Source of the DNA: Chloroflexota bacterium
GTDB lineage: Bacteria; Chloroflexota; UBA11872
Reading direction: 5' to 3'
Assembly (NCBI GenBank): GCA_965208215.1
Contig: CBDBOH010000003.1
Coordinates: 1,761,259 to 1,825,258, forward strand
DNA: 64,000 nucleotides
A program made the position numbers and the translations under genes. The notes under the pieces are model-generated. The model was not told where the DNA came from, did not search any database, and saw only the letters and a list, made by a program, of their open reading frames with translations. How positions within the stretch are numbered: position 1 is the first letter of the stretch; the number at the start of each line of letters is the position of its first letter. Positions 2,200 through 43,199 of this stretch are shown here, one piece after another.

Positions 2200-2666
2200 A
2201 CCGGTTCGCCGCGAGCCACACACCACCGTTCCACCTCTCGGTCGCAGGCCGGCTCAGCCCGGCCATCCGTTGCCGCGACCGCTCTCACCCAGCCTGCTCC
2301 CTACGGAGCACACCCCAGCGGCCACCGGCCGCTCCCCGACTTGCCCCGCGACCTGATCCAATGTACACTATCTGAGTAAGACTCGCAACTTCCCCCCAAT
2401 GCCCGCAGCCCTTCTGCTCCTTCGTCTCCTTTTCGCTCCCCTTCGGCGCCTCCTCCATACCTGCCGTCCGCACCCAGTCCCCAGCGCCGCATCGTCATGC
2501 CTGCGGAGAGCCTGTCCTGAGCTGGCCGAGGGAGAGAGCCGGCAGCACCCAACAATCCCGGCTCTACTGGCCACCCCGACCTCCCCGGCATCCCGAGCGT
2601 GCGCCTTTCGTACCCCTCCCTGCACAGCCCCGATCTTCGTCGCCAACCCGCCCCAAAATCCGCCAA

Positions 2667-2721
2667 AGCTGTCTCTCGGCAGCCCGAACCCCAGAGGGGT
2701 TCGGGCTGCCGAGAGACAGCT
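2667..2721. repeat. Perfect 26-bp inverted repeat with a 3-nt loop
   Basis: AGCTGTCTCTCGGCAGCCCGAACCCC-AGA-GGGGTTCGGGCTGCCGAGAGACAGCT; arms checked base by base. Confidence 0.95.
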
Positions 2722-3007
2722 CCCCACATCGCCCCCGCCAATTTCCGCCTCTGGCCCAGCCGCACCGCCCTGGCAACACCTCGACCACTCGTCCCCTGCC
2801 CCAACCCCGCCACACACCTTCACCCGCCCACCAACCACCCACCCCCGGACCGCCGCTCTTTCACCTCTCCAGGGGGAAAGGCAGAACCTGTGCACAGCTC
2901 GTCCAGTGGATCCGGCGTCCCCGCCGCAATGCGGCAAGGGCTTCTCCACCCTCATCTGTGCCCTGAACCACCCCTCTCCAGCCGCCCGTCAGACCCACCA
3001 AAAAACC

Positions 3008-3075
3008 ACCCCGCGCCGCCTCAAGAGTTTTTTAGAAAAGACTCTTATTGCGCGCGAGGACGCCCATCTCGCACC
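3008..3075 (+). repeat. Dispersed intergenic repeat, copy 1, with an AAGAGTTTTTT-NN-AAAAGACTCTT palindromic core
   Basis: Aligns with the reverse complement of 19343-19408; core at 3023-3046. Confidence 0.8.
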
Positions 3076-3095
3076 CATTCCCGCCCCCGCCAATC

Positions 3096-3119
3096 GTTCG
3101 TCTCTTGTTCGGTTACAAT
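3096..3119 (+). promoter_or_regulatory. Putative lhr promoter: -10 TACAAT (3114-3119) with a GTTC-N7-GTTC direct repeat (3096-3110)
   Basis: TACAAT ends 8 nt before the ATG at 3128 and there is no SD, suggesting a leaderless transcript. GTTC-gtctctt-GTTC lies just upstream. Confidence 0.45.
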
Positions 3120-3127
3120 GCCCGCCC

Positions 3128-7390
<4,263 letters not shown>

Positions 7391-14138: not shown

Positions 14139-15155
14139 ATGAAAGCCGCCTACCTCGAATCAGCCCTCCAGGTCCACACCCGTGACGTGCCGCTGCCCGA
14201 TCCCGGTCCCGGCGAGGTGCTCATCCGTATCCGCTCGGTCGGCGTCTGCGCCTCGGATGTCCACTACTACGAACATGGCCGCATCGGCCGCTATGTCGTC
14301 CGTGAGCCGCTCATCCTCGGTCACGAGCCCGCGGGCGAAGTCGTCGCGCTCGGATCCGGCGTCAATTCCCTCACCGAAGGTGACCGCGTCTCCATCGAAC
14401 CCGGCGTTCCCTGCCGCGCCTGTATGCACTGCCGCACCGGCCACTACAACCTCTGCGACGACGTCGTTTTCATGGCTACCCCGCCAGTCCATGGCGCCTT
14501 TGTCGAATACGTTGCCCATCCCGCCGACTTCGCGTACCGCATTCCCGATCACGTCTCGTATGACGAGGCTGCCCTCATCGAGCCGCTCTCGGTTGGCCTG
14601 TTTGCCGCCCGTCGCGGACAGGCCCGCCTGGGCGACCGCGCAGCCATCCTGGGCGCAGGCCCGATTGGCCTCATGACCCTCCTGGCCCTCCAAAGTCAGG
14701 GCATTTGCGACGTCACACTGGTCGACGTTGAACCCTTCCGCCTCCAGAAAGCTCTCGATCTCCACGCCGCCGACGCCATCGACGCCAGTGCCGAAGACGT
14801 CGGCCAGACCCGCGCCAGGCAGTTCGACCTCGTCTTCGAAACCGCCGGCAACTCCACCACCCTCACCCAGACCACCCGCATCGCCCGCCGTGGTGGCCGT
14901 GTCGTGCTGGTTGGTATGACGGACGCCGACTTGACTCCCGTCGACACCAACGAACTGGTCGACAAGGCCCTCGACGTTGCCGGCGTCTTCCGCTACGCGA
15001 ACACCTGGCCGCGCGCAGTCGACTTGCTGTCCCGCGGCGCGGTCGACCTCAAGCCCCTCATCACCGCGCACTACCCGCTCGAAGCCGCCGGCCAGGCCCT
15101 TGAAGACGCTCGCACCCGCAAGGATGCCAACATCAAGGTCATGGTCACGCCCTAG
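14139..15155 (+). CDS. Zn-dependent polyol (sorbitol-type) dehydrogenase
   Basis: GVCASDVHYYEHGRIG, GHE, CRACMHCRTGHYNLC, EPLSVG, GAGPIG, GVFRYANTWP. Confidence 0.9.
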   Translation: MKAAYLESALQVHTRDVPLPDPGPGEVLIRIRSVGVCASDVHYYEHGRIGRYVVREPLILGHEPAGEVVALGSGVNSLTEGDRVSIEPGVPCRACMHCRTGHYNLCDDVVFMATPPVHGAFVEYVAHPADFAYRIPDHVSYDEAALIEPLSVGLFAARRGQARLGDRAAILGAGPIGLMTLLALQSQGICDVTLVDVEPFRLQKALDLHAADAIDASAEDVGQTRARQFDLVFETAGNSTTLTQTTRIARRGGRVVLVGMTDADLTPVDTNELVDKALDVAGVFRYANTWPRAVDLLSRGAVDLKPLITAHYPLEAAGQALEDARTRKDANIKVMVTP

Positions 15156-15226
15156 CGCTCTTGCCCGCCCCGTCGATTCGGTACTACCGTGACCCCGCCG
15201 CCGAGTAGTGACGCAGAATCTCGACC

Positions 15227-15733
15227 ATGCCCCGCGCCGAAGGCTCAACCACATTCGCAACCGGCGATCGCGCACCGGACTTCCACGTGCCCGTGGCGGG
15301 AACCGACGAACACGTCACGTTGCAGGACTTTGCCGGTCGGTGGCTTTGCCTGGTCTTCCTCAGACATACCTGGTGACTGAGCTGCCAGGGCTACCTGGCG
15401 CGGCTCGAGGTCGAGCTGGACGAGTGGACGCGAAGGGGTGCCGCCGTCGCCGGCGTATTCCCACAGGGCCTTGACGCCGTTTCGGGATTCGCCACGCGCG
15501 AAGAGATTCCGTTTCCGATTTTGGCCGATCCCGACCGCCAGATGACTCGCGACTACGGCGTGTACGTCCGGTTCCGCTACGACTCCTGGAACACCGCGCG
15601 GCCGTCTGTGTTCCTTATCGATCCCGCCGGGATGGTGCGCAAGCTGTGGGTCGGTAGTCACCAACTCGACTGGCCCGTGACCGCGGACTTCTGGCAGGTG
15701 ATCGACGGCCATGAAGCGAACGGTGAGCAATGA
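15227..15733 (+). CDS. Peroxiredoxin-like (AhpC/TSA) protein with an in-frame UGA; probable selenoprotein, 168 aa
   Basis: One frame from ATG 15227 to TGA 15733 with a single internal TGA at 15374-15376: GDRAPDFHVP...VFLRHTW-U-LSCQ...FPILADPDRQMTRDYGV...RPSVFLIDPAG. Confidence 0.8.
15379..15406 (+). promoter_or_regulatory. Candidate bacterial SECIS hairpin
   Basis: GAGC-T-GCCAGG-(GCTA)-CCTGGC-GCG-GCTC immediately 3' of the UGA. Confidence 0.5.
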
Positions 15734-15836
15734 CCGCAACGGAAAGTTCAAGCCTTCTATACTCGGAGCGTGGCGCCCGGAAGTACTGAGCACCACATGC
15801 AGCGGAAGGGTGGACCGCTGGCACCGGAGGACCACC

Positions 15837-16040
15837 ATGACCGCAGGCGAGACCAGCGCCGACCCTGGACTTGAAGTTTCACGACTCGGCCACCGCATGA
15901 GCCGGCTCGAAGGCGCCTGCGAACACCTCGCAACCAAGGCTGACCTCAAGGACCTTGAACTGCGTCTTACGCTGCGCGTGCTCAGCATCGTCGGAGCCGC
16001 CACCGGCCTCATCATCGCCGTCGATCGGCTGTGGTCGTAA
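15837..16040 (+). CDS. Small coiled-coil plus TM protein (DUF1640/CCDC90-like), 67 aa
   Basis: GGAGG RBS before ATG 15837; HLATKADLKDLELRLTLR followed by a hydrophobic tail. Confidence 0.65.
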   Translation: MTAGETSADPGLEVSRLGHRMSRLEGACEHLATKADLKDLELRLTLRVLSIVGAATGLIIAVDRLWS

Positions 16041-16052
16041 GCAGTCCGCGCC

Positions 16053-18209
16053 TTAGTCGACGGCTGCCCTGAGCAAGTCGGCCAGATGCACGGGCCGACC
16101 CGCACCTGCGACTGTCGGCCCCTCCTTCAAGTGCATCAGGCACCCGGGGTTGTCCGCACACACCACCTCCGCGCCCGTGGCGGCGAACGCCTCCAGCTTG
16201 CGGGCGCGCATCCGTTTCGCCACCTCCGGGTGATCGAAGGAGAAGGAGCCGCCGAAGCCGCAGCATTCGCCTGAAGGGGCGGCTTCGACGACCGTATAGC
16301 CGGCGTCGGTGAGCAGCTCGCGCGTCTCCGGTCCCAGCCCCAGGCCGTGCTTGGACTGGCAGGCGTCATGGATCGTCACCACGCCGCTTGCGCGACCCAG
16401 CATCTCGTCGGGGATTCCCCGCTCCGCTACATAGCTTGTGAAGTCGCGCACCTTGGCGGCCGCCGCCCGGGCACGCTCGGTCCACGCCGGATCGTCCTCT
16501 GACAGCCGCGCGTAGTCATGCAGCATCGCCCCGGCGCAGCTGGTAGACGTGCTCACGACCGCGTCTACCTCTAGGCATTCAATGGCTTCGACCGTCTGAC
16601 GCATCATCCGCGTGGCCTCATCCTTGTACCCCGCGTTGATCGCCGGTAGCCCGCAGCACGAGGAGAACTGCACCGGCTCCACGGCGACCCCCAACGCCTC
16701 CAAGACCGCCACCGCCGCCTCGCCGGTCTCCGGCGACAGCCAGTCCGTCAGGCAACCGGGGAAGTAAGCCACCTTGGTGGTCGTCTCGGGACTAGTAGTC
16801 GCGGCGTCGCCAATTCGGTCACGGAATGGGCGCCGCTGCACCTTCGGCAGCGGCCGTCGTTTCAGCGGCGACCCCGGCAGCCGGCGGCCCAGCGCCTGCA
16901 GCCACGGAGCCTTCGAAGCCAGCCGCGCTCCGCGCTCCAGCAACCGTTCGTCCGCAAGCGCACCCAGCGCACGTTTCTTGATCGTGTTGCTGGAATGCCC
17001 CTCGGCCACTGCCCGCTCGCGCACGTCAAGGATCAGGTCTGGAATCGATATCCCTGCCGGACAAACGCTCGCGCATGCCCCGCAGCCGGCACAGAGCGAT
17101 TGTGGCCCGGCAATGTGTTCCAGGCCGTGGTGATAGGGCGTCACCAGCAGTCCGATGGGCCCTGTGTAGATGTGCCCCATCGCGTGCCCGCCTACCTGCT
17201 GGTAGACCGGGCAGACGTTCGAGCAGGCTCCGCAGCGCACGCACTGCAGGGCCGATCGCATGCGCGGGTTGCTGCGAATGGCCTCGCGCCCGTTGTCCAG
17301 CAGCACGATGTGGACGTGCCGCGGCCCGTGCACGCCCATCGACAGCGAAAGCTCGATGTCCGCGCTGCGGCTCGGCCCTGAGATGAACGAGACGTACGTC
17401 GAGATCGGCTGACCGGTGGCGCTGCGCGGCAGACTCTCCAGCATCGTCGTGGCGTCGGCCAGGGTGGGCACCAGCTTGTCGATGCCGGCGATCACGATGT
17501 GCACCGGCGGCAGCGCGCTGGCCAGCCGCGTGTTGCCCTCGTTGCATACCAGCATCACGGTCCCTGTTGCGGCCACGAGTGCGTTCGCACCCGTGATGCC
17601 CGCGCCGGCCTCAATGAAGCGGCTGCGCAGGTGGCGCGCCGCCGCGCCCACCAGCACGTCGGGATCCGGCGGCAGGTCTTCGCCGGTGGCCCGGCTGATC
17701 AGTTCGGCCGCGCGCTCGCGGACGATGTGAAGGGCGGGCGCGACGATGTGGGACGGGCGCTCCCCGGCCACCTGGACCAGGAACTCGCCGAGGTCGGTCT
17801 CGACGACCTCGATGCCGTCGTCCTCGAGGGCGGCGTTGAGCTGAATTTCCTCGGTGGCCATTGACTTGCTCTTGACCACCATCTGGACCTCGTGGTCGTG
17901 CAACACCTGCAGCGCCGTCGCCACGGCACCCGCGGCATCGGTGGGCCCGTGCACGACGGTGCCCACGGCCTCGGCCGCGGCTGTGAACTCCTCGATCAGC
18001 TCCGGCATCCGGTCCAGCGCCGCCTGTCGGCGGCCGCCCAGGTCGGCCTGGCTGCTCGGGAAGTCGCGAGCGCTGAAAGCCGCGTCGCGACGCTCGCTCA
18101 GCTGCGGGAGCGAGCGTCCCAGGGCCACCGGCAGCGACTCCGATTCGAGCGCCTCCCGCAGCCGGTCCTTGAACGGCGGAATTGCGTGCGCTGCGCTACC
18201 GGCCGACAT
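16053..18209 (-). CDS. LUD-domain Fe-S protein; fusion of lactate-utilisation LutB-like and LutA-like (CCG) regions
   Basis: KSKSMATEEI, ETDLGEF, GPSRSADIE, CVRCGACSNVCP, CAGCGACASVCP, then CCG, CHDACQ-like HDACQ and ECCGFGGSF. Confidence 0.88.
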   Translation of the reverse strand: MSAGSAAHAIPPFKDRLREALESESLPVALGRSLPQLSERRDAAFSARDFPSSQADLGGRRQAALDRMPELIEEFTAAAEAVGTVVHGPTDAAGAVATALQVLHDHEVQMVVKSKSMATEEIQLNAALEDDGIEVVETDLGEFLVQVAGERPSHIVAPALHIVRERAAELISRATGEDLPPDPDVLVGAAARHLRSRFIEAGAGITGANALVAATGTVMLVCNEGNTRLASALPPVHIVIAGIDKLVPTLADATTMLESLPRSATGQPISTYVSFISGPSRSADIELSLSMGVHGPRHVHIVLLDNGREAIRSNPRMRSALQCVRCGACSNVCPVYQQVGGHAMGHIYTGPIGLLVTPYHHGLEHIAGPQSLCAGCGACASVCPAGISIPDLILDVRERAVAEGHSSNTIKKRALGALADERLLERGARLASKAPWLQALGRRLPGSPLKRRPLPKVQRRPFRDRIGDAATTSPETTTKVAYFPGCLTDWLSPETGEAAVAVLEALGVAVEPVQFSSCCGLPAINAGYKDEATRMMRQTVEAIECLEVDAVVSTSTSCAGAMLHDYARLSEDDPAWTERARAAAAKVRDFTSYVAERGIPDEMLGRASGVVTIHDACQSKHGLGLGPETRELLTDAGYTVVEAAPSGECCGFGGSFSFDHPEVAKRMRARKLEAFAATGAEVVCADNPGCLMHLKEGPTVAGAGRPVHLADLLRAAVD

Positions 18210-40620: not shown

Positions 40621-40782
40621 GCAGCTCCTGCCTCGAGGGAAACGTGTCAATTCACACTATATGACTCGTGGAAAAAGCTGTCCATGTAGCATGTGCTAAT
40701 GGCCCTCACTGCATTGTTTCGCCTGCCGGAGCGTGTAGCCGTTGTACTTGCGTCGTGTGTCCCTGGAGGCGGTGGTGTTGAC

Positions 40783-40948
40783 CGCTTCAGCGCGTCAAGC
40801 ACCTCATGCGCAGCGTTGTGCCCCTGCGCGCCCGTGACCTCGCCGCCGGGGTGGGTGCCGTCGCCGCAGAGGTAGAGGTTCTTGATCGGCGTCCGGTAGT
40901 CCGACCACCCGGGCAGTGGCCGGCGCGACATGATCTGCTGCGGCACCA
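40783..40948 (-). pseudogene. Duplicated 3' end of the FAD oxidoreductase at 41477-43024
   Basis: PQQIMSRRPLPGWSDYRTPIKNLYLCGDGTHPGGEVTGAQGHNAAH is nearly identical to the C-terminus of the full gene. Confidence 0.9.
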
Positions 40949-40949
40949 C

Positions 40950-41066
40950 TTCGCCGAAGCCCTCCACGGTATCCTGACGGACATTGGAGCCCAAGCCGAA
41001 AACCGCTACGTGCCGAACGACATCCTCGAAGCGGTCCGGAAGATGTATTGCGAGGCGAGCGGCTAA
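40950..41066 (+). pseudogene. Duplicated 3' end of the ADP-ribosylglycohydrolase
   Basis: FAEALHGILTDIGAQAENRYVPNDILEAVRKMY aligns with IAEALHGIPADIQTEAECRYIPEDILTIVRELY at 38563-38685. Confidence 0.85.
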
Positions 41067-41090
41067 CGCCGAGGATAAGCGCGTGGGATA

Positions 41091-41315
41091 TCAAGACTCG
41101 GCGTCGGCGTTCCACCGGACTCCGGTTGTCAAGATGTCACCCGTAATCCTGATCTTGTCCCGCAGGCTCCCGATTAGTTCTGCATCCCCCTCGGCATAGG
41201 GCACGACCCGCGCGACGGGCTTGCCGCCCTTGGTAATGATCAGGCCATCGGAGTCGAGCTCGTCCAGCAACACGAGGCAATGAGCCTTGAACCACGCGGC
41301 CTCAATCGTCCTCAT
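41091..41315 (-). CDS. Phd/YefM-family antitoxin, orphan; only a 'LDTHALI'-like vapC stub follows at about 41065-41095
   Basis: MRTIEAAWFKAHCLVLLDEL...IITKGGKPVARVVP; downstream gtcttgatatcccacgcgcttatc reads as a frameshifted LDTHALI. Confidence 0.85.
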   Translation of the reverse strand: MRTIEAAWFKAHCLVLLDELDSDGLIITKGGKPVARVVPYAEGDAELIGSLRDKIRITGDILTTGVRWNADAES

Positions 41316-41476
41316 GCCGTTCCTCAGTCAACCGGAATTCAGCCGGATCGCACATTGTGTCCGGCGACAAGACCAGCGATCGACGCCGCTCCAATGCCCG
41401 GCCTCGCAGACCTTCGCAGCTTCCGCGCCGCTCGAATCCCGCGCTGGGCAGAGGACGGCAACTGGCCGACTCGCGC

Positions 41477-43024
41477 CTACCGCCCCAGCTCATCCAGCAC
41501 CACATGCGCCGCGTTGTGGCCTGGGGCGCCGGTTACCTCGCCGCCGGGGTGGGTGCCGGCGCCGCAGAGGTAGAGGTTCTTGATGGGGGTGCGGTAGTCG
41601 GACCAGCCGGGGAGGGGGCGGCGGGACATCATTTGTTGGGGAATCATGTCCACGTGGCGGATGTTGCCGTCGGTCAAGCCGATGCGGTCCTCGATGTCCT
41701 CGGGCGTGAGCATGGTCCAGTCGATGATGGCGTCCCTGAAGTTGGGGGCGTAGCGGCAGAACTCGTCGATCAGCTTTTCCCCGAACTCCTGCCGCTTCTC
41801 CGACCACGTGCCTTCCTTGAGGTGCGCCGGCACGAAGAATACCCACATGGACAGCACGTGCTGTCCGTCGGGCGCCACGGATGGGTCGTAGACGGTCGGA
41901 ATCTGCACCTGGATGACCGGTGTTTCGGGAAGCCGGCCGTTCGTGGCGTCGAACCAGCTCGACTCGCAGTAGTCCGTTGAGGGGGCGAGATTGATCATGG
42001 ACAGGTGTTTGGGGTCGTAGTCGTCGCCCAGGTGGCGCGAGAAGTCGGGCAACTCGCGCAGCGAGCAGAGGAACTTGACCGAGGCGGACTGCGTCTTCAG
42101 CGCTTCGACTTCGTCCACGACGTCCTGGTCCACGTCGTCCCCGTCCAGCAGCTTGGTGAAGGTGCGCTTGGGGTCGGCGTTCGAGAGGACCAGGTCGGCC
42201 TCGATTACCTCGCCGTTCGCCAGCTCCACGCCGGTGGCCTGGCCGTACTCGGTCAGGATGCGGGACACCTCCGCACCCGTGCGGATCGACACCCCCACCG
42301 ACTCGGCGGAGCGGGCCATGGACTGGGTGATGGACCCCATTCCGCCGCGCACGATGCCGTAGTTCTCCGTGTCCTCGCGGTAGGCGCTGAAGCGGTAGAG
42401 CGCCATGATGTAGGCGCTGCCGGGCGCGCTGAGGTTGCCCATGTCGATCGCGCCGATGCTGGCCATCGCCCGCATCTCGTCGGAGACGAATGTGCGGTCG
42501 ATCAGGTCACGAACCGGAACCGTGAGAAGCGTTTCCAGCAGCTCTTCTTCCTCCTCGTCCCTGAATCGCTCGGTGAGCTCGGCCAGGGAAGGCGGCGGCT
42601 GCAGGTAGTAGTCGCTCAGAATCCGCACAGCGCGGTGCCAGAAGTTGGCCCAGTCCAGCCAGGCCTCGGCGTCCTCGGGCGAGAACTGGCGAATCTCTTC
42701 CGCCGTCTTCTCGTCGTCGTGCCACAGCCTGACGGCGCGCCCGTCGGGAAACGGGTGCAGGCGGCCCGGGTCCAGGGGGTAGACGTGGAACCCGTGGTTC
42801 CGCAGCTCCAGCTCGTCGATCACCTTCTGCTGCAGGATGTGGCACACGTAGGAGCAGGTGGAGATGTGAAAGCCGGGAAACCACTCCTCGGTCACGGCCG
42901 CGCCGCCCACCACGTCGCGGCGCTCCAGCACCTGCACGTCCAGCCCGGCCCGGCCGAGATACCCGGCAGCCACCAGCCCGTTGTGCCCGCCGCCGACGAT
43001 TACGACTTTCTTGTTCCCGGCCAT
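41477..43024 (-). CDS. NAD(P)/FAD-dependent oxidoreductase, phytoene dehydrogenase-like
   Basis: VIVGGGHNGLVAAGYL, LERRDVVGGAAVTEE, GGMGSI, NLYLCGAGTHPGGEVTGAPGHNAA. Start at ATG 43024. Confidence 0.92.
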   Translation of the reverse strand: MAGNKKVVIVGGGHNGLVAAGYLGRAGLDVQVLERRDVVGGAAVTEEWFPGFHISTCSYVCHILQQKVIDELELRNHGFHVYPLDPGRLHPFPDGRAVRLWHDDEKTAEEIRQFSPEDAEAWLDWANFWHRAVRILSDYYLQPPPSLAELTERFRDEEEEELLETLLTVPVRDLIDRTFVSDEMRAMASIGAIDMGNLSAPGSAYIMALYRFSAYREDTENYGIVRGGMGSITQSMARSAESVGVSIRTGAEVSRILTEYGQATGVELANGEVIEADLVLSNADPKRTFTKLLDGDDVDQDVVDEVEALKTQSASVKFLCSLRELPDFSRHLGDDYDPKHLSMINLAPSTDYCESSWFDATNGRLPETPVIQVQIPTVYDPSVAPDGQHVLSMWVFFVPAHLKEGTWSEKRQEFGEKLIDEFCRYAPNFRDAIIDWTMLTPEDIEDRIGLTDGNIRHVDMIPQQMMSRRPLPGWSDYRTPIKNLYLCGAGTHPGGEVTGAPGHNAAHVVLDELGR

Positions 43025-43199
43025 GGCTTGCTCCTTCTCCCGCTGCCGCAAAAGCTCGCCGTCGTACGCTCTAAGTTCCATCCCGAACGGCCGCTGCATG
43101 CCTGCGCCCCTCCTACGTGACGCAGCGCGCGGTTACGCGCCACCTCACCGGGGTCACCGGGCTAGAATCTCAGGCCGTTCGGAGGACGGGTCTGAGCTT

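Follow-up and report, generated by a model that had tools for sequence, protein, structure and literature searches.

Positions 15227–15733 of a 64-kb stretch of a Chloroflexota bacterium contig (hereafter the window, meaning the whole stretch of DNA that was analysed, to which all position numbers refer unless a related locus is named) very probably form one gene, encoding a 168-residue redox protein of the thioredoxin fold in which an in-frame UGA at codon 50 is decoded as selenocysteine (Sec). The reading frame is continuous and constrained, the TGA is invariant and lies on a catalytic cysteine (Cys) column, an RNA element follows it, and transcription extends across it; the comparisons of sequence described below point to Sec as the residue inserted at codon 50. 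In our view the gene is real and almost certainly encodes a selenoprotein; it has escaped annotation, and although its class is known, we found no earlier report of that class from this lineage. The first-pass annotation of this DNA, made from the letters alone, had proposed a hidden selenoprotein at the site, with an AhpC/TSA fold and a UxxC motif in which the UGA takes the place of the catalytic Cys, and the comparative evidence (the conserved TGA, the Cys column and the pattern of selection) supports that proposal.

A continuous reading frame across an invariant TGA

The coding sequence begins with an ATG at 15227, and reading through codon 50 yields 168 amino acids that include the segment VFLRHTW-U-LSCQGY (where U denotes Sec). 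A mechanical list of open reading frames (ORFs) cuts the gene into a 49-residue piece (15227–15376) and later fragments. The first-pass annotation had pointed out this split and the complete product obtained by reading through the TGA at 15374; its coordinates and sequence were confirmed. The features of the frame are as follows.

15227–15733, plus strand: probable complete selenoprotein coding sequence, 168 residues including Sec50, with an AhpC/TSA thioredoxin-fold domain (read-through translation, PF00578 match across the TGA, orthologues, dN/dS)
15374–15376, plus strand: in-frame UGA, codon 50, the predicted Sec codon (TGA in all orthologues, aligned with the first Cys of CxxC)
15371–15385, plus strand: putative redox motif W49-U50-L51-S52-C53, a thioredoxin-like WCxxC with Sec in the first position (alignments A2 and A3)
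15731–15733, plus strand: true terminator, TGA (read-through translation; orthologues end in TGA, TAG or TAA)

With Cys written at the TGA, the translation matches the Pfam AhpC-TSA family (PF00578) over residues 13–139 at 93.9 bits (cutoff 26; E = 9e-27), so that the domain match runs straight across the TGA. Relatives are split in the same place (here and below, L-numbers denote relative loci and P-numbers relative proteins). Members of the clade are present in a database of 5.8 billion proteins only as C-terminal fragments of 92–117 residues, and the genome annotations of the orthologues hold a pair of products, one of 47–49 residues and one of about 100, the second of which is called a truncated ‘AhpC/TSA’. 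Gene callers leave such a pair where they meet a Sec codon, and none of the public genomes and protein database entries examined has the gene annotated correctly.

Read literally, these annotations describe a genuine stop: a 49-residue peptide and a C-terminal fragment with an initiation site of its own (as in a split gene or a leader-peptide arrangement), with hairpins that would serve translational coupling or attenuation. This is indeed how gene callers treat the locus in every genome; TGA also serves as an ordinary terminator in the genome of the window, and two stable hairpins lie directly 3' of the codon. We nevertheless regard this explanation as very improbable, because no downstream start is conserved (the callers' starts differ among genomes, and an ATG at codon 57 is found only in one subclade), because both pieces belong to a single AhpC/TSA domain of which neither half would be a viable thioredoxin fold alone, because the TGA sits exactly on the invariant catalytic Cys column, and because relatives of ∼36% identity, with unrelated downstream sequence, are divided at this very column too.

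A protein-guided scan with one genome per species identified 28 orthologous loci in metagenome-assembled genomes (MAGs) of Chloroflexota, all matching the full 168 residues at 61–98% amino acid identity. Codon 50 is TGA in the window and in 28 of 28 orthologues, whereas the gene ends variously in TGA, TAG or TAA. The TGA is also found at this column in L037 (56% identical, on a closed 3.0-Mb chromosome), in L160 (46% identity), in L161 and L162 (∼36%) and in four more Chloroflexota species (L183, L184, L188 and L198), which brings the totals to 33 of 33 Chloroflexota orthologues (28 plus 5) and three distant relatives. The single-base change to TGC or TGT has occurred at codon 50 in none of the ∼36 TGA-type genes, and the DNA runs, analysed as independent raw-data graphs, contain no variant at the TGA. 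Genome-wide reassignment of TGA is excluded by its use as an ordinary stop, since it terminates 10 of the 29 confident long genes of the window and, in several genomes, the codon-50 gene itself.

The residue expected at this column was examined with an exhaustive HMMER search of a 1.8-billion-protein library, using as query the exact 118 residues downstream of the TGA. The search returned many similarly truncated proteins together with full-length relatives of 155–177 residues. The motif F-x-R-G-T-W-C-x-x-C is present in 10 of the 12 full-length relatives retrieved and aligns residue for residue with F-L-R-H-T-W-U-L-S-C; the two others have kept the first Cys only (P0013, WCPHA) or lost both (P0044, WWPNS). 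The distant homologues L029–L034 likewise have Cys at the codon-50 column. In alignments A2 and A3, W49, C/U50 and C53 are invariant in the clade, and R46 and F44 are invariant family-wide. The presence of Cys in both the full-length and the distant homologues argues that Sec replaces the first Cys of a thioredoxin-like W-C-x-x-C motif, and the earlier suggestion that the stop falls exactly on the catalytic Cys, with Cys or TGA to be expected at this column in homologues, is borne out.

Two further observations concern the wider family. In L161 (2839–3339) and L162 (2839–3342) the motif reads W-U-P-N-Y and W-U-P-N-A, a Sec without the second (resolving) Cys; the same pattern in the Cys-type protein P0013 suggests, at the level of motifs, a one-Cys/Sec mechanistic subgroup in the family. 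About half of the 150 best HMMER relatives (P0012–P0160) are pieces of 80–120 residues that start just after the Sec/Cys column, and all three of the truncated relatives examined at the DNA level have a TGA there, which suggests that Sec-type, mis-annotated members of the subfamily are common far outside the Chloroflexota clade.

The ratio of nonsynonymous to synonymous substitution rates (dN/dS) was calculated by the Nei-Gojobori method over all 378 pairs, with the following results.

Codons 2–49: dN/dS 0.20, dS 0.72
Codons 51–67: dN/dS not used, dS 0.18
Codons 68–168: dN/dS 0.26, dS 0.74

Purifying selection thus acts on both sides of the TGA and the downstream half is clearly not decaying; the first-pass annotation had named neutral decay of that half as an outcome that would speak against a selenoprotein, and with dN/dS at 0.26 in codons 68–168 against 0.20 in codons 2–49 it was not seen. 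The segment between these two blocks behaves differently.

15377–15427, plus strand: codons 51–67, suppressed synonymous change (diversity, dS and metagenome graphs)

Synonymous diversity per codon is 0.11 in codons 51–67 versus 0.35 elsewhere (Mann-Whitney p = 5e-6), and the lowest 16-codon window of the whole gene starts exactly at codon 51. We take this collapse as the mark of an RNA element superimposed on the coding sequence. The same segment stands out in metagenome assembly graphs (runs X1, X3 and X5), where depth increases 2–4-fold exactly over 15363–15430 because strains that differ elsewhere collapse onto an identical sequence; strains that occur together, and that differ at 15 sites over the 165 nt upstream, are identical over the post-TGA segment. 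A TGA at codon 50 in every orthologue, followed from codon 51 by the least diverse synonymous sites of the gene, amounts to conservation far beyond chance.

In four sponge metatranscriptomes, RNA contigs run over orthologues without a break at the TGA, although these are assembled contigs and may include DNA carry-over; one of them, 691 nt in length, extends from upstream of the start to beyond 15603.

Tandem hairpins after the UGA

RNAalifold, run on 20 distinct sequences, predicted two adjacent hairpins (H1 and H2) downstream of the UGA, either of which might be considered as the selenocysteine insertion sequence (SECIS).

15383–15400, plus strand: hairpin H1, 6–7-bp stem, loop GCUA at 15390–15393 (RNAalifold); accessory element, probably not the SECIS that binds SelB
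15401–15418, plus strand: hairpin H2, 7-bp stem CGGCUCG/CGAGCUG, loop AGGU at 15408–15411 (RNAalifold); best SECIS candidate

The published model of the bacterial SECIS (bSECIS) specifies an apical loop of 3–9 nt, an upper stem of 4–16 bp, a G in the first two loop positions, 16–37 nt between the UGA and the apical loop, and an energy of −7.5 kcal/mol or lower (PMC13188914). H2 agrees with the model throughout (4-nt loop, 7 bp, G at loop position 2, 31 nt, −9.7 kcal/mol). The core of H1 (GCCAGG/GCUA/CCUGGC, at 15384–15389, 15390–15393 and 15394–15399) fits it in loop and stem in most genomes and fails on spacing, as its loop begins 13 nt after the UGA rather than 16–37 nt.

The first-pass annotation had described H1, extended by a lower stem, as a possible lineage-specific SECIS. 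The hairpin itself is real, with its loop 13 nt from the UGA as stated, and it is conserved and includes one compensatory pair. The extension (GAGC at 15379–15382 with GCUC at 15403–15406, or 15379–15383 with 15402–15406) did not hold up: it is broken in 3 of the 20 sequences and competes with H2, which RNAalifold prefers. Nor does the proposed function survive, since H1 is too close to the UGA, has degenerated in L160 and L183 (in both of which H2 is intact), and has a loop that lacks G in L184 (CCUA); its loop in L188 is GACCAA. The SECIS is most likely H2, not H1, and H2 is the putative site of SelB binding.

The behavior of H2 in more distant relatives is consistent with this assignment. 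Protein similarity, rather than the RNA pattern, led to L037 and L160; in both, the H2 stem is unchanged, with the two loop codons altered from E-V to A-G and the loop from AGGU to CGGG. The sequence after the UGA in L161 and L162 is unrelated, yet hairpins of 7–8 bp with a GGG(G) or GGC loop are present there, 21 nt from the UGA. A bSECIS-compliant hairpin is absent in four of six Cys-type homologues. The pattern ‘TGA + 24 nt + H2’ has 42 matches in ∼185,000 species genomes, of which 33 are this gene in Chloroflexota; the remaining nine are in other phyla and lie in no coherent ORF. Each complete target chromosome contains the pattern once, so there is no second gene with the same SECIS.

A mechanism that would accommodate these features begins with a ribosome at UGA-50, where a SECIS stem-loop inside the coding sequence, most probably H2 (15401–15418), would recruit SelB-GTP-Sec-tRNASec, and H1 (15383–15400) may be a clade-specific accessory structure. 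The product would be a cytoplasmic redox protein of the AhpC/TSA type. The selenolate of its W-U-L-S-C motif would attack an oxidised substrate, presumably a disulfide or a peroxide, and would then form a selenenylsulfide with Cys53, to be recycled by a thiol reductant.

We also entertain, as an unlikely but conceivable extension, that the recoding signal is a bipartite, lineage-specific class of SECIS, in which adjacent coaxial hairpins fill nt +7 to +45 after the UGA; in a more radical variant the UGA would be read by a Cys-inserting mimic of tRNASec. H1 would then do more than fill space: it might set the pace of the ribosome, keep RF2 away, or display H2, at its long distance of 31 nt, to a Chloroflexota SelB working with the unusual 8/4 tRNASec of the phylum. 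The tandem hairpins and the long distance from UGA to SECIS are the only unusual feature of the system, and only mildly so.

Counter-evidence, selenocysteine machinery and alternative decoding

Several observations weigh against Sec decoding of an intact gene, and most of them concern the hairpins. The H2 stem has no covariation; it is simply invariant, except for a G-C to G-U change in L014 and L188, where its energy (−7.2 and −6.8 kcal/mol) is borderline relative to the −7.5 kcal/mol limit. In H1, pair 15389–15394 has changed from G-C to G-U, and pair 15388–15395 has changed from G-C to U-A in one subclade, coupled to the substitutions Q54H and L57M and with one U-U exception; this compensatory pair is probably a single evolutionary event. 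The fold of the single sequence is not better than chance (z = −1.2, with 24 of 200 shuffles as good), and in L183, L184, L188 and L198 the conservation of H2 was built into the search pattern. Moreover, at the 65% GC content of the window, about 6% of codon positions drawn at random have after them a hairpin that complies with the model and is as stable as H2. With such a background the hairpin alone is weak evidence, and it is the conservation that carries the argument. The possible DNA carry-over in the RNA contigs belongs to the same list, as do a frameshift in one orthologue and the machinery searches described below.

The frameshift is found in L028 (OZ253587.1, a closed long-read chromosome), where a single nucleotide is affected near residue 70 (6191–6216 of that locus), with the TGA and both hairpins kept; it is either a homopolymer or long-read indel error or a real, recent pseudogene. 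Together with the fact that the gene is annotated intact nowhere, it could be taken to mean that the whole locus is a pseudogene, or an assembly or sequencing artefact, in which a Cys codon was mutated or mis-called to TGA. We find this scarcely credible: more than 35 assemblies, made independently from short or long reads, carry the same TGA, the raw-data graphs lack any variant at the TGA, a dN/dS of 0.26 downstream at a dS of ∼0.74 rules out neutral decay, and the orthologues are transcribed.

The 64-kb window and ∼400 kb of flanking sequence from orthologous loci yielded no selA, selB, selD or tRNA-Sec gene. ARAGORN and Rfam (at the gathering threshold) returned no tRNA, tRNA-Sec or other RNA family across the whole 64-kb window, and tblastn of the E. 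coli SelA, SelB and SelD proteins against the window and L001–L034 gave no match. A scan across viral and genome contigs for the pyridoxal phosphate (PLP)-site motif of SelA produced at least 120 SelA matches; none of the target MAGs is among the matches listed, and more than a dozen Chloroflexota are, including the sponge-derived MAGs L092 and L118, which come from the same studies as the targets. The Chloroflexota SelA proteins are only 50–60% identical to each other and to those of other phyla, and given this flat divergence a ranking by similarity cannot reach the target clade. High-GC sequences account for 72 of the 120 SelA matches among the matches listed, and codon-biased patterns gave no enrichment. 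ARAGORN identified 26 tRNA-Sec genes adjoining selA in the at least 120 SelA loci listed, none of them in Chloroflexota. Selenoproteins have been recorded in Chloroflexi, where an unusual 8/4 tRNASec is also described (PMC1794560, PMC5389517).

These results bear on a further explanation, that the UGA is recoded but to a residue other than Sec: to Cys, via a tRNA-Sec-like tRNA(Cys)UCA and a SelB paralogue (selC*/SelB*), or to Trp or Cys, by near-cognate read-through that the hairpins stimulate. The conserved TGA, the constrained downstream frame and the conserved RNA element would fit any programmed recoding equally, and the window and the orthologous flanks gave no Sec machinery. Some bacteria do possess a selC* tRNACys with a UCA anticodon together with SelB*, and the 8/4 tRNASec is found in Chloroflexi (PMC5389517). 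The selC*/SelB* systems, however, have been reported in Deltaproteobacteria and Nitrospirae, always beside a full Sec system (PMC5389517); if Cys were the residue required, TGC or TGT would do, and none of the ∼36 TGA-type genes has made that change. In addition, pfam00578 with UxxC is a recurrent, bona fide Sec class, and H2 fits the bSECIS model of the SelB type. We therefore judge decoding as another residue to be improbable.

Genomic setting and relationship to known redox proteins

The locus was found in sponge metagenomes and in host-labelled runs, and the organism is a sponge symbiont. Two genomic contexts are observed. In L001–L017 and L028, as in the window, genes for an amidohydrolase, a cyclase and a zinc-dependent alcohol dehydrogenase precede the Sec gene, which is followed by a small ORF and then by a LUD/4Fe-4S/CCG fusion on the opposite strand. 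In L018–L027, L037 and L160 the Sec gene is located directly after an ABC ATPase and an ABC-2 permease, as the third gene of an operon, and starts 1–20 nt from the end of the permease gene (for example in L037, 8010–12953). L037 and L160 also have a MarR gene and two fused ABC exporters downstream, and this ABC/MarR context hints at a role in export or stress response, of which the surroundings in the window give no sign. The existence of two contexts indicates that the TGA and H2 survived relocation, from the ABC-2 transporter operon to a site downstream of the alcohol dehydrogenase gene, and that the function of the gene is independent of its neighbours in the window. A scan of 14900–16200 for promoters and terminators found no such element.

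Other genes of the window that we noted are listed here.

16053–18209, minus strand: convergent downstream neighbour, 718 residues, with LUD (LutB-like), 4Fe-4S dicluster and two CCG domains
2357–7390, plus strand: Lhr-type large helicase, ∼1660 residues
19886–23491, plus strand: three consecutive genes matched by PADLOC as NsnA (E = 2e-137), NsnB (8e-99) and NsnC (7e-56), with Pfam matches to GmrSD_N and AAA_15/AAA_21/DUF3696
∼40650–41330, minus strand: Phd/YefM-like, antitoxin-looking ORF in frame, across a TGA at 41091, with a C-terminal fragment of a CrtI/amine-oxidase-type FAD oxidoreductase
41477–43132: full-length amine oxidase adjoining the 41091 locus

The three Nsn genes, about 4 kb from the Sec gene, are by their profile matches a candidate for a complete anti-phage system. 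The locus with the TGA at 41091 resembles the remnant of a gene next to an inserted toxin-antitoxin module rather than a second selenoprotein gene. A screen of the window for other selenoprotein genes, based on the GC3 frame, gave four candidates, all of which were antisense frames or a junction of two genes, and a second pair of ‘48 aa + 123 aa’ ORFs in L037 turned out to be an unrelated repeat protein.

The gene points to the use of selenocysteine by an uncultured lineage of Chloroflexota that comprises at least 33 species, and because of the mis-annotation the known redox repertoire of these abundant sponge symbionts is incomplete. General knowledge of selenoproteins is unchanged by it. One gene in two contexts, with two hairpins that evolve differently, does provide a clean comparative set from which to learn which RNA features a non-model SelB needs.

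Bacterial selenoproteins that combine pfam00578 with UxxC are an established class (PMC1794560, PMC2398784, PMC9312934), termed ‘Prx-like thiol:disulfide oxidoreductase’ where pfam00578 occurs with UxxC or UxxU (PMC9312934, PMC13188914) and ‘Prx-like 1’ in an earlier survey (PMC2398784). By the field's own definition (pfam00578 plus UxxC) the predicted product of the window gene is a member of this class; we found no literature report of the class in sponge-associated Chloroflexota. None of the curated NCBIfam models reaches its own cutoff for the protein. The top match is to the SelL-related model NF040769 (55.1 bits versus a cutoff of 120; the Cys-type relatives score 45–62 bits), and the scores for BCP (41.2 versus 140), PrxU (38.7 versus 270), PrxQ (32 versus 260), AhpC (28 versus 272) and the ResA subfamily (40.7 versus 170) are lower still. 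In profile comparisons the protein is equally far from structures of BCP and of ResA (E ∼1e-10 and ∼5e-10).

Assignment as a peroxiredoxin in the strict sense was rejected, because the P-x-x-x-T-x-x-C motif is absent and the curated equivalog scores lie far below their cutoffs. The first-pass description of the gene as ‘peroxiredoxin-like’ is apt for the AhpC/TSA fold and less so for the active site, which is a thioredoxin-like W-U-x-x-C without the peroxiredoxin signature; ‘Prx-like thiol:disulfide oxidoreductase’ is more accurate.

Compared with individual families, the protein shares fold and AhpC/TSA domain with the BCP/PrxQ peroxiredoxins (PDB 5enu, 3hjp and 2ywn), which are its best matches among solved structures (E ∼1e-10). 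Unlike these and the Sec-containing peroxiredoxin PrxU, it lacks P-x-x-x-T/S-x-x-C, having Thr at −2 rather than −3 and no Pro, and unlike known peroxiredoxin selenoproteins, which have TxxU, its motif is UxxC. R125, in the segment N-x-A-R-P-S-V-F-L-I-D, is nearly invariant and is offset by one residue from the peroxiredoxin Arg in a pairwise alignment to 5enu. With ResA/TlpA it has in common a W-C-x-x-C-type active site, the same fold and a profile similarity as strong as that to BCP, but no N-terminal membrane anchor or signal sequence is visible in it. The SelL-related family NF040769 and eukaryotic SelL (Prx-like, UxxU) have a similar F-x-R-x-x-x-C/U-x-x-C/U layout, whereas the window protein falls below the curated cutoff and has UxxC in place of UxxU.

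By domain and motif, the closest correspondence is to the Prx-like class itself (named ‘Prx-like 1’ in the GOS survey, and with WP_010940744.1 from Geobacter sulfurreducens as its reference member), with which the window gene shares the Pfam domain, the placement of Sec on the first Cys of CxxC, abundant Cys homologues, a marine setting and a function assigned by inference only (PMC1794560, PMC2398784, PMC9312934, PMC13188914). It differs in representing a distinct subfamily, recognizable by R-[GH]-T-W-[U/C]-x-x-C and Y-G-V-Y-V-R-x-N-F-E-S-W-N-x-A-R-P.

At the RNA level, H2 resembles the bSECIS consensus and the SECIS of E. coli fdhF in its location within the coding sequence just after the UGA, its 4-nt loop and its G-G/U at loop positions 2–3. 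The loop of the fdhF SECIS lies roughly 20 nt after the UGA. H2, at 31 nt, is near the upper end of the bSECIS range, whereas the hairpins of the relatives L161 and L162 are at 21 nt, and the space between the UGA and H2 is filled by H1, so that a tandem pair takes the place of one long hairpin.

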